Part shown: in pieces, positions 22,245-24,828 of the stretch | How the letters are laid out: each line of letters starts with the position of its first letter | Numbering within the stretch: the stretch's first letter is position 1 | Origin: Gemmatimonadaceae bacterium | GTDB taxonomy: Bacteria; Gemmatimonadota; Gemmatimonadetes; Gemmatimonadales; Gemmatimonadaceae | Length of the DNA: 64,000 bases | Direction: 5' to 3' | Assembly: GCA_017881685.1 (NCBI GenBank) | Contig: JADGQR010000060.1 | Coordinates: 1,370 to 65,369, forward strand | The notes under the pieces: generated by a model | Told to the model about the DNA's origin: nothing | Databases searched by the model: none | The model's input: only the letters and a program-made list of their open reading frames with translations | Made by a program: the position numbers and the translations under genes

Positions 22245-23396
22245 ATGACCGCGAAAGGAACGAGCACAAAAGACAGCACCCACAAGCCCGGTTCGCTTGT
22301 CTCCGGACGAGCAACACTGACAGCAACCCGGTCATTCGCGTCTCGGTTCAACTCAGGCCTTTCAGACGACTTTTACCGCGAGACTTTTTCCGGTCTCACA
22401 GTTTCGTCAATCGGAATGGGAACCTATCTCGGAGAATGCGACGACACCGAGGATCAGCGATACGTAGATGTCATCGGCTCAGGAATCAGTAGCGGTCTGA
22501 ACCTCGTCGACACGGCAGTCAACTATCGCTGTCAACGCTCAGAGAGATCAGTCGGCCGGGCGTTGCGTAAAGCGTTTGAGTCGGAATCCGCCTCGAGAAG
22601 CGAAGTGGTCGTTTGCACGAAGGGCGGATATATCCCGCTCGAAGGCCAGCCGCCCGAGTCTCGCGACAAATACACCGCATACCTGGCAGCTGAATATTTC
22701 GATCACGGCGTGATGACTCCCGCTGATGTCATCGCCGGAGGCCATTGCCTGACTCCGCGATTTCTGTCGAACCAGATCGATCGAAGCAGAGCGAATCTTG
22801 GCGTCACGTGCATTGATATCTATTACATCCACAATCCCGAACAGCAGCTCGGAATTCTGAGTCGATCAGTCTTTCTCGACGTGATGCGAAACGCGTTCGT
22901 AGAGCTCGAGGCGCAGGTGAAGGCCGGAAAGGTCGGCACGTATGGCTGCGCGACATGGAACGGGTTTCGTGTCTTCCCCGCGAACAGGAATTACCTCTCG
23001 CTGTCGGAGCTTGTCTCCGCGGCTGTTGATGCAGGCGGACCTGATCATCACTTCAGAACGATTCAGCTGCCCGTCAATCTTGCAATGACAGAAGCCGTGC
23101 GGCTGCCGAATCAGCATAATGGAGTGAACAACGTTTCACTCCTCGATATCGCGACGAAGTCGGACATATCGGTTATCGCGAGCGCTTCACTGATGCAATC
23201 ACAGCTGACACGGGATCTTCCGCCAGCGGCAAGGACTCTCTTTCCAGGGTTCGAGACGGACGCGCAAAGAGCGATTGCATTCGTGCGCTCGCTGCCAGTC
23301 GCATCCGCTCTCGTTGGAATGAGAACACTCGCCCACCTGGATGAAAACGTGGGCGCTGTTCGCAGCGCTGCTTCAGCGCCGGTTATTCGATCCTGA
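22245..23396 (+). CDS. Aldo/keto reductase
   Basis: SSIGMGTY, DTAVNY, TKGGY, IDIYYIHNPE, IQLPVN. Confidence 0.92.
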   Translation: MTAKGTSTKDSTHKPGSLVSGRATLTATRSFASRFNSGLSDDFYRETFSGLTVSSIGMGTYLGECDDTEDQRYVDVIGSGISSGLNLVDTAVNYRCQRSERSVGRALRKAFESESASRSEVVVCTKGGYIPLEGQPPESRDKYTAYLAAEYFDHGVMTPADVIAGGHCLTPRFLSNQIDRSRANLGVTCIDIYYIHNPEQQLGILSRSVFLDVMRNAFVELEAQVKAGKVGTYGCATWNGFRVFPANRNYLSLSELVSAAVDAGGPDHHFRTIQLPVNLAMTEAVRLPNQHNGVNNVSLLDIATKSDISVIASASLMQSQLTRDLPPAARTLFPGFETDAQRAIAFVRSLPVASALVGMRTLAHLDENVGAVRSAASAPVIRS

Positions 23397-24828
23397 GATC
23401 CGACGTCTCCCCGGATTCGGGGTCGACGACTGCGATGCGGTGCGCGTTCGTATCCGCCACATAAACTTGCTTCGGCCCGAAGCACACCCCTGCTGGTTCA
23501 TGAAATCCACGCGCGAACGTCTTTGCCGCACGCGTTTGTCGATCGACCCATTTCAGGCAGTCGTTGTACGAATCGGCAATCAAAAGTCTCCCGCTCGAAT
23601 CCGCAGCGATTCCCTGAACATGTTGCAGCCTCACGTCATCGCCCGTTCCATCGACGTCACCGAAATCAAAGAGCCCCGTTCCAACGATCGTGCCGACTTC
23701 CGCATGATCGCCTGCATCCACCCGGCGAATCGCGCTTGATTCGGCATCGGCAAAGTAGACATGATCTTTGTCGATTGTGATTCCCATCGGCTGCGCGAGC
23801 AGCGCCGATGCCGCATCACCATCTCTTATGTCCTCGCCGCCGGTTCCACAGTGCACTCGGCTCTTACCGCTCTTGATATCGACTGACCATATCTGGTGGG
23901 TGCCGGCCATCGCCACATAGAGCGTATTCCCGGAGAGGACGAGGTCCCACGGCGACGACATTGCACCCGCCTGTTGATCCGCGCGTGTTCTCATCTGCCG
24001 CCCGATTCCTGAAAGCGTTGCCACTTCGCCACTGGATAAATCGATTGTCCGAATTGAATGGTTTTCCGTGTCAGCGACGTACAGGAGTCCTTCTCCAAAT
24101 ACCAATCCCTGCGGTGATCTGAACCTTCCGTTGGGACCGTCCCGAAATCCCGGAGTTCCGTCTCCGATCGTCTTTTCAACTCGAATGGTTGTGCCGTCTT
24201 CGTCGAGAGTGCCAACGATGATGCGATGATTACCGCTGTCGGAGATTGCCATCCGGTCGTCTGTCATCGCGACCTTTCCTGGATATCGCAGCTTGCCGGG
24301 TGCCATTATCGGAGCGTCTGCATCGAAATGCAGCGGTTGCTCGTTCATGATTCCGCTGCTTCGAGCTTTCGCGATCAGCCCTTCGATGAACGGCACGAGC
24401 ATTTCGCTCGTGAACTCTCCGGCATGCGTACCGACCACGTATCCCGCCGCATCGATGGCAACAATCGTCGGCCAGGCCGAGACGGCGTAGCTGCGCCAGA
24501 TTCTGAATTGGCGGTCGTTGACGATAGGATGCACTGCGTCGAGTCTTATCGACGCGTCGCGTATCCTGGGCGTGACACGCTCAGCATGGTATTTGCCACT
24601 CTGAACACCGATTACGACAAGTTCCGACGGAAACCGCAGCTCGAGCTCCCGCAACTGCGGGAGTACGTGCATGCAGTTAATTCACCCATAGGTCCAGAAG
24701 TCGAGCAGCACGATCTTCCCGCGGAGATCAGCAAGCCTCAGTGCTTTTCCGCCAGTGTGAATCCAATCGACGTTGTCCGGAAATTCCGGCGACCTTACCG
24801 CAGGTGTAGTTGAAAATTCTCGTGGCAT
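23383..24828 (-). CDS. Thioredoxin-like (UxxC) + NHL-repeat protein, NHLRC2-like; probable selenoprotein (481 aa, TGA at codon 49)
   Basis: Open frame from ATG 24828: ...[17 protein letters not shown][TGA 24684-24682][10 protein letters not shown]; then AWPT, YPGK, SDSGNHRI, VADTENH, SPWD, AQPMG. Confidence 0.9.
24646..24663 (-). promoter_or_regulatory. Putative bacterial SECIS element
   Basis: Hairpin CTCCCGC-AGTT-GCGGGAG starting 18 nt after the in-frame TGA; GU in apical loop. Confidence 0.75.

Follow-up and report, generated by a model that had tools for sequence, protein, structure and literature searches.

An in-frame TGA as the very probable selenocysteine codon of a Gemmatimonadales thioredoxin-NHL protein related to NHLRC2 and SOQ1

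The 64,000-nucleotide (nt) window analyzed here (positions 1,370 to 65,369 of contig JADGQR010000060.1, assembly GCA_017881685.1, from a Gemmatimonadaceae bacterium) carries on its minus strand a gene for a thioredoxin-fold protein joined to an NHL-repeat beta-propeller (Trx-NHL), which is related to NHLRC2 of humans and SOQ1 of plants. The gene is interrupted by a single in-frame TGA, which is very probably a selenocysteine (Sec) codon placed at the redox site of the protein. The elements of the gene, in coordinates of the window, are as follows.

23383..24828, minus strand: predicted selenoprotein gene of 481 codons plus TAA, by read-through of UGA49; orthologues align over residues 1-481 with one internal TGA.
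24682..24684, minus strand: UGA codon 49, predicted to be read as selenocysteine; the sole in-frame interruption, in the context WTYG-U-INC.
24673..24684, minus strand: predicted U49-I-N-C52 redox motif (UxxC), at the CxxC position of the thioredoxin fold and aligned with the CINC part of CCINC in SOQ1 and NHLRC2.
24646..24663, minus strand: upper hairpin of the putative selenocysteine insertion sequence (SECIS), a 7-bp stem with an AGUU apical loop (24656-24653), within codons L56-E61; from folding and covariation.
24334..24801, minus strand: TlpA/DipZ-like thioredoxin-fold domain, approximately residues 10-165; Pfam Thioredoxin_8, AhpC-TSA and Redoxin, and PDB alignments to SOQ1, NHLRC2 and DipZ.
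23401..24291, minus strand: NHL-repeat beta-propeller, approximately residues 180-476; Pfam NHL (E 3.9e-30), aligned with the propellers of NHLRC2 (6G7W/6GC1) and SOQ1 (7DJL).
23383..24672, minus strand: truncated open reading frame (ORF) of 429 amino acids from Met53, as entered in the ORF list; the database entry P0002 is identical in sequence and length (429 aa) and spans 89% of the 481-aa query.

With TGA translated as U, a single open frame runs from the ATG at 24828 to the TAA at 23385-23383 and encodes 481 residues beginning with MPREF. The initial annotation, made from the letters of the window, had pointed out that the ORF track starts only at 24672 although the frame is open from 24828, and that the one interruption is the TGA at 24684-24682, at the first redox position. 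Both statements are borne out by the sequence and its translation, and every coordinate given there matches. The further proposal of a 481-aa Sec-thioredoxin with a beta-propeller is supported by the translation, the Pfam matches, the PDB alignments and the behavior of the homologues described below, and the label 'NHLRC2-like' proved correct by the PDB alignments. The Pfam matches of the thioredoxin-fold domain to Thioredoxin_8, AhpC-TSA and Redoxin are weak, and the domain has a WPT cis-proline motif at residues 119-121. The C-terminus directly follows the propeller. The 481-aa translation contains no N-terminal hydrophobic stretch or signal peptide, so the protein is presumably cytoplasmic.

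The TGA is conserved among the closest relatives. In the same-genus sample, which was searched in six frames across 40 relatives, the gene was found in 6 of 25 genomes of the genus, the source genome included, and it contained the TGA in all of them. The full-length orthologues from the five other species share 64-69% identity with the window protein, and contain a single TGA apiece, always at residue 49 within WTYG-*-INC and with the same hairpin after it. Over the 48 codons before the TGA, the six congeners show 258 synonymous versus 208 non-synonymous codon differences and use the same start ATG, indicating that the upstream region is translated in this frame. Purifying selection was found on both sides of the TGA. 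A reassignment of the genetic code was considered and rejected, since TGA is the main stop codon of the genome and ends 619 of its 1100 long open frames.

A wider scan, with each species represented by one genome, gave 582 relatives, and codons were counted in the 80 best loci. The codon at the Sec position was TGA in 46, TGC in 30 and TGT in 4, and all of the non-TGA homologues among these loci therefore have Cys at this position. The alternation of TGA with TGC in homologues, which the initial annotation had proposed as a check, thus occurs at exactly this codon. Among the same 80 loci, TGA forms were found in Gemmatimonadota, Chloroflexota (Chloroflexia, Anaerolineae and Limnocylindrales), Dormibacterota and Coriobacteriia, and Cys forms in Pyrinomonadaceae and other Acidobacteriota, other Chloroflexota, Planctomycetota, Bacteroidota, Ignavibacteriota and others. 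Among 301 evenly sampled Gemmatimonadota genomes, an orthologue (E <= 1e-80) was present in 18, eight with the TGA and ten without a stop. Given this frequency and that within the genus, the Trx-NHL gene is an accessory and patchily distributed gene in Gemmatimonadota. On a maximum-likelihood tree of 81 sequences, the Sec/Cys label requires at least three changes, and Sec clades enclose two Cys forms (L067 and L079), the pattern usual for Sec-to-Cys replacement. One of them, L067 (Gemmatimonadales metagenome-assembled genome [MAG] CAVTUF010000001.1, about 3136-3195), is a TGC form within the Sec-form Gemmatimonadaceae clade. It still encodes PQLRELE, while synonymous changes have destroyed the hairpin (CCC CAG CTG CGG GAA; -4.6 kcal/mol), and it looks like a recent Sec-to-Cys replacement with decay of the SECIS.

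The putative SECIS begins 18 nt past the TGA and consists of CTCCCGC (24663-24657), AGTT (24656-24653) and GCGGGAG (24652-24646), so that the AGUU apical loop lies 25-28 nt after the UGA. The perfect 7-bp stem, its loop and its distance had been described in the initial annotation and were found as described upon reading the sequence. The surrounding 66-nt stretch folds with -30.1 kcal/mol (z = -3.5 versus shuffles). A perfect 7-bp hairpin is expected by chance 8-30 nt after any given codon of the window with a probability of about 3%, so the hairpin by itself is only suggestive, and its significance comes from its conservation in relatives. When 47 Sec-form sequences are aligned without gaps, 93.8% of the cells of the 7-bp helix are paired, compared to 39-67% upon sliding of the partner columns. 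One stem pair varies as CG in 18, UA in 15, UG in 7 and GC in 6 of these sequences, a compensatory pattern. Synonymous positions are frozen within the stem and variable in the neighboring codons. In a Chloroflexia subgroup whose protein reads ..PVVHRLE.., this place is taken by another hairpin, GCCGGUG-loop-CACCGGC, and two Coriobacteriia have a further variant, but G and U are present in the apical loop of every Sec form. In contrast, the hairpin is absent from the Cys forms. Over the same 36 nt, the mean folding energy is -12.3 kcal/mol in the 46 Sec forms versus -4.9 kcal/mol in the 34 Cys forms, a comparison in which kinship inflates the significance of the p-value. The Cys forms have PDLK[KR]LE where the Sec forms have PQLR[EK]L, a difference which indicates that the RNA structure constrains the protein sequence. 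Conservation of the hairpin, also raised in the initial annotation, therefore holds for the TGA forms, with covariation, and not for the Cys forms. An E-value search of Rfam gave no match to the hairpin region; for bacterial SECIS elements, a 2026 review likewise uses no Rfam family (PMC13188914).

The initial annotation had also suggested looking for selA, selB, selD and tRNA-Sec in the genome. The source assembly (3.37 Mb in 341 contigs, 84% complete) encodes selB with 371 bits (cut-off 242) in a match that extends over positions 1-579 of the 581-position profile, as well as selA with 523 bits, interrupted by a contig end. The selD gene (C122:8107-9198; locus L018; 363 bits) contains one in-frame TGA of its own, in ..FARCAG-U-ASKMGPGDL.., and UxxK is a known Sec site of SelD (Table 1, PMC13188914). 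Just downstream of selD, contig C122 ends with the first 50 nt of a tRNA-Sec, UCA anticodon included, which is 98% identical by BLAST to the gene of the congener G007. Since the contig ends after these 50 nt, standard tRNA finders report no tRNA-Sec in this MAG: neither Rfam nor ARAGORN found a whole one, the latter in a whole-genome run that returned 35 tRNAs. A borderline Rfam tRNA-Sec match of 47.2 bits in the same genome was rejected because ARAGORN identifies it as tRNA-Ser(UGA). In two congeners, tRNA-Sec was found with 70.5 bits (G007) and 58.6 bits (G023). Among the Sec-form genomes without a selB match that were checked, four of five have selA over the cut-off. One of these four is G067, a Coriobacteriia MAG consisting of a single 1.84-Mb chromosome (OY969691.1; loci L070 and L124) with a TGA form. 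It encodes a tRNA-Sec of 71.5 bits (1614440-1614532) and a selA that is apparently split in two frames (1610090-1611449). No selB was found in this genome at E <= 1e-60, and its selB may be divergent or broken.

The samples described above include unpublished genomes, namely G046 (L049, TGA), G094 (L097, TGA), G110 (L113, Cys) and G266 (TGA, in the phylum census). They contribute to the count of 46 Sec and 34 Cys forms, the SECIS alignment (L049 and L097), the tree, the selB tallies and the census of eight TGA and ten uninterrupted genes, and the conclusions are unchanged upon their removal.

If UGA49 were a genuine stop, the functional product would start at Met53 or a nearby TTG and consist of a decapitated thioredoxin fold with the NHL propeller, while the 48 upstream codons would form a leader or a separate small peptide. 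This is the annotation of all pipelines, and an ATG is indeed found four codons past the UGA. However, the protein sequence of the upstream codons is conserved, in the reading frame of the remaining gene, and supplies the thioredoxin fold with its redox motif and initial beta-strand, aligned to SOQ1 and NHLRC2, whereas the truncated product would be without its active site. The Cys-form homologues are continuous through this region. Moreover, the restart codon lacks conservation, as most Sec-form relatives have Ile, Leu or Val in place of Met53, and termination at UGA49 seems very unlikely. Alternatively, UGA49 might be read through by a near-cognate or suppressor tRNA (Trp, Cys or Arg) in place of Sec-tRNA, with the hairpin acting as a general stimulator, as structured RNA 3' of stop codons can be. 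While the Sec assignment is sequence-based, this kind of decoding would be hard to reconcile with the consistent presence of Cys at the redox CxxC position of all non-TGA homologues, with a loop G and U typical of bacterial SECIS elements, or with a Sec pathway in the genome that includes a Sec-containing SelD. The occurrence of selB over the cut-off in 39 of 46 TGA-form genomes, and of selA in four of the five selB-negative ones checked, also speaks against it, and we regard it as no more probable than termination. A pseudogene, or an assembly or sequencing error of TGC or TGT, is the least probable of the explanations. The window does come from a single MAG of moderate quality, but the same TGA recurs in dozens of independent assemblies from several phyla, a degree of conservation that effectively refutes this explanation. 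Additionally, the frame is intact over 481 codons apart from the TGA, and the purifying selection acts both before and after it.

Several observations nevertheless weigh against selenocysteine at codon 49. The tRNA-Sec of this assembly is only half present, being cut at the contig end. A selB over the cut-off occurs in 29 of the 34 Cys-form genomes, which does not separate them from the Sec-form genomes (39 of 46), and the co-occurrence is thus uninformative; most of these lineages use Sec anyway, which explains the lack of separation. The lower SECIS helix in the minimum free energy fold of the window is only 62% paired across relatives and is not claimed, as covariation supports the upper helix alone. 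The neighboring genes, a convergent aldo/keto reductase and a divergent MBL-fold hydrolase, are also without a functional hint, because their synteny is limited to Gemmatimonadaceae and reflects lineage.

Truncation by gene-calling pipelines, as anticipated in the initial annotation, is widespread in this family. The window's own database entry is 429 aa long. Among the 120 nearest database proteins, an N-terminal part is missing from 116, and the remaining four, which are complete, have Cys in place of Sec. The truncated entries are named 'alkyl hydroperoxide reductase' by NCBI. No NCBIfam model reaches its cut-off with the protein; the best selenoprotein-specific one, NF041054 (WAxxUGC ResA-like), scores 26.2 bits against 300. 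None of the 119 families in the 2026 inventory of prokaryotic selenoproteins is listed with an NHL propeller or a relationship to NHLRC2 or SOQ1 (PMC13188914), and a literature search linking selenoproteins with NHLRC2, SOQ1, NHL repeats or beta-propellers found only unrelated papers. The catalogued UxxC selenoproteins of the thioredoxin fold (Prx-like PF00578, thiol-disulfide isomerase-like cd02966 and Redoxin family PF08534; Table 1, PMC13188914) share with the window protein the fold, a UxxC motif in which Sec takes the place of the N-terminal nucleophile, the existence of homologues with Cys and a SECIS that follows the UGA directly. In contrast, they are single-domain proteins or other fusions without an NHL propeller, and their descriptions set the window protein apart. 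These generic entries may nevertheless hold fragments of the Trx-NHL family from short metagenomic reads. The recoding mechanism is textbook, and UxxC proteins of the thioredoxin fold are the commonest kind of selenoprotein. What appears to be new is the Sec form of an NHLRC2/SOQ1-type family, for which we found no published selenium form.

The closest relatives of known structure share the core of the protein. The best PDB match is the lumenal region of Arabidopsis SOQ1 (7DJJ, E 5.9e-89), with a common core of thioredoxin-like domain and NHL propeller, followed by human NHLRC2 (6GC1, E 1.2e-82), in which residues 61-574 align with residues 13-476 of the window protein. The core alignment to the NHLRC2 and SOQ1 structures spans residues 10-476. 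Conserved features include [C/U]-I-N-C, the WPT cis-proline and the flanking residues FWTY and HVLP. In CCINC of NHLRC2 and SOQ1, the second Cys is the aligned counterpart of U49 and the first that of a Gly in the window protein. The window protein lacks the C-terminal beta domain (CTD) of these proteins, which has a conserved Cys pair and to which methionine sulfoxide reductase (Msr) activity is assigned in SOQ1, and has neither the HAD domain nor the transmembrane helix found in SOQ1. Such a two-domain architecture is usual among bacterial homologues, which are mostly without the CTD and have no conserved operon (Biterova et al., PMC6107167). Another Gemmatimonadota family, f10, carries Cys-form homologues (e.g., G128:C235:264-1544 and G121:C6:104109-105356) in frames of 640-790 aa, of which only about 430 residues align, and these may have an additional C-terminal domain like that of NHLRC2 and SOQ1.

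The closest thioredoxin-fold relatives without NHL repeats are the C-terminal domain of DipZ from M. tuberculosis (2HYX, E 1e-19, thioredoxin domain only), TlpA (1JFU) and ResA (1ST9). DipZ has the related motif SCINC (PMC6107167). Unlike the window protein, these are disulfide reductases that act outside the cytoplasm and are fed by membrane proteins of the DsbD/CcdA type, with Cys instead of Sec and no propeller. With the ResA model NF002854, the window protein scores 49 bits against a cut-off of 170. The hairpin likewise has a known counterpart in the SECIS of the E. coli fdhF type, which is also a stem-loop directly 3' of the UGA in the coding sequence, with a small G/U apical loop at a fixed distance, and is read by SelB; its sequence is unrelated to that of the window hairpin.

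In bacterial Sec recoding, SelB with GTP and Sec-tRNA(Sec) is tethered by a hairpin 3' of the UGA. By this standard mechanism, SelB carrying Sec-tRNA(Sec) would bind the hairpin 18 nt 3' of UGA49, and Sec would be inserted without termination. The propeller may then bind a specific substrate, probably a protein or peptide, by analogy with NHLRC2, in whose structure the motif sits where helix alpha1 begins, in a cleft opposite the propeller cup, which may be a ligand site (PMC6107167). The selenolate of U49 could attack an oxidized sulfur group on this substrate, such as a disulfide, a sulfenate or possibly methionine sulfoxide, after which C52 would resolve the intermediate as a selenenylsulfide, and a cellular reductant such as thioredoxin would regenerate the enzyme. 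In a preprint on SOQ1, the thioredoxin-like domain is reported to be redox-active and to pass electrons to the C-terminal domain, and the lumenal domains to reduce methionine sulfoxide in LCNP (10.1101/2024.11.01.621559). Two reported results count against extending the proposed chemistry to the bacterial protein: NHLRC2 was inactive in an insulin reduction assay (PMC6107167), and the Msr chemistry of SOQ1 is assigned to the C-terminal domain, which the window protein lacks (10.1101/2024.11.01.621559). For these reasons the proposed catalytic chemistry is only an analogy, and since the bacterial protein has no C-terminal domain, the electron-relay scheme of SOQ1 is not transferable as it stands.

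Sec/Cys pairs among homologues are generally accepted as a sign of catalytic redox cysteines. The Sec forms argue for redox chemistry at the [C/U]INC motif of NHLRC2, the protein of the disease FINCA, and of SOQ1, which functions in photoprotection, and point to the cysteine that would act as the nucleophile. With the chances about evenly balanced, we propose that the Sec/Cys alternation marks the second Cys of CCINC (Cys90 of human NHLRC2 by alignment) as the catalytic redox nucleophile, that the NHLRC2/SOQ1 family are true oxidoreductases with their active site in the cleft between thioredoxin domain and propeller, and that this core works without the CTD, as suggested by its absence from the bacterial selenoenzymes. 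If true, this would provide a testable biochemical handle on NHLRC2, whose redox role has been doubted. The NHLRC2/SOQ1-type Trx-NHL proteins would also add a selenoprotein family common in Gemmatimonadota, Chloroflexota and Dormibacterota. Finally, a widespread gene of soil bacteria is systematically truncated in public databases, where the active site is missing in 116 of the 120 nearest proteins, and domain-based inferences drawn from such entries about the Trx-NHL gene would be wrong.

Two minor observations concern the surroundings of the gene and its paralogues. The aldo/keto reductase gene (22245-23396, plus strand) and the predicted selenoprotein gene (23383-24828, minus strand) overlap by 14 nt at their 3' ends, which leaves no room for an intrinsic terminator between them. 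Genomes of the same genus also contain a paralogous family (e.g., G022:C319:798-1229 and G020:C176:52958-53383; L030-L035) with frames of 360-440 aa and no internal stop, which has only the thioredoxin domain in common with the window protein, at 31-37% identity to residues 13-157.

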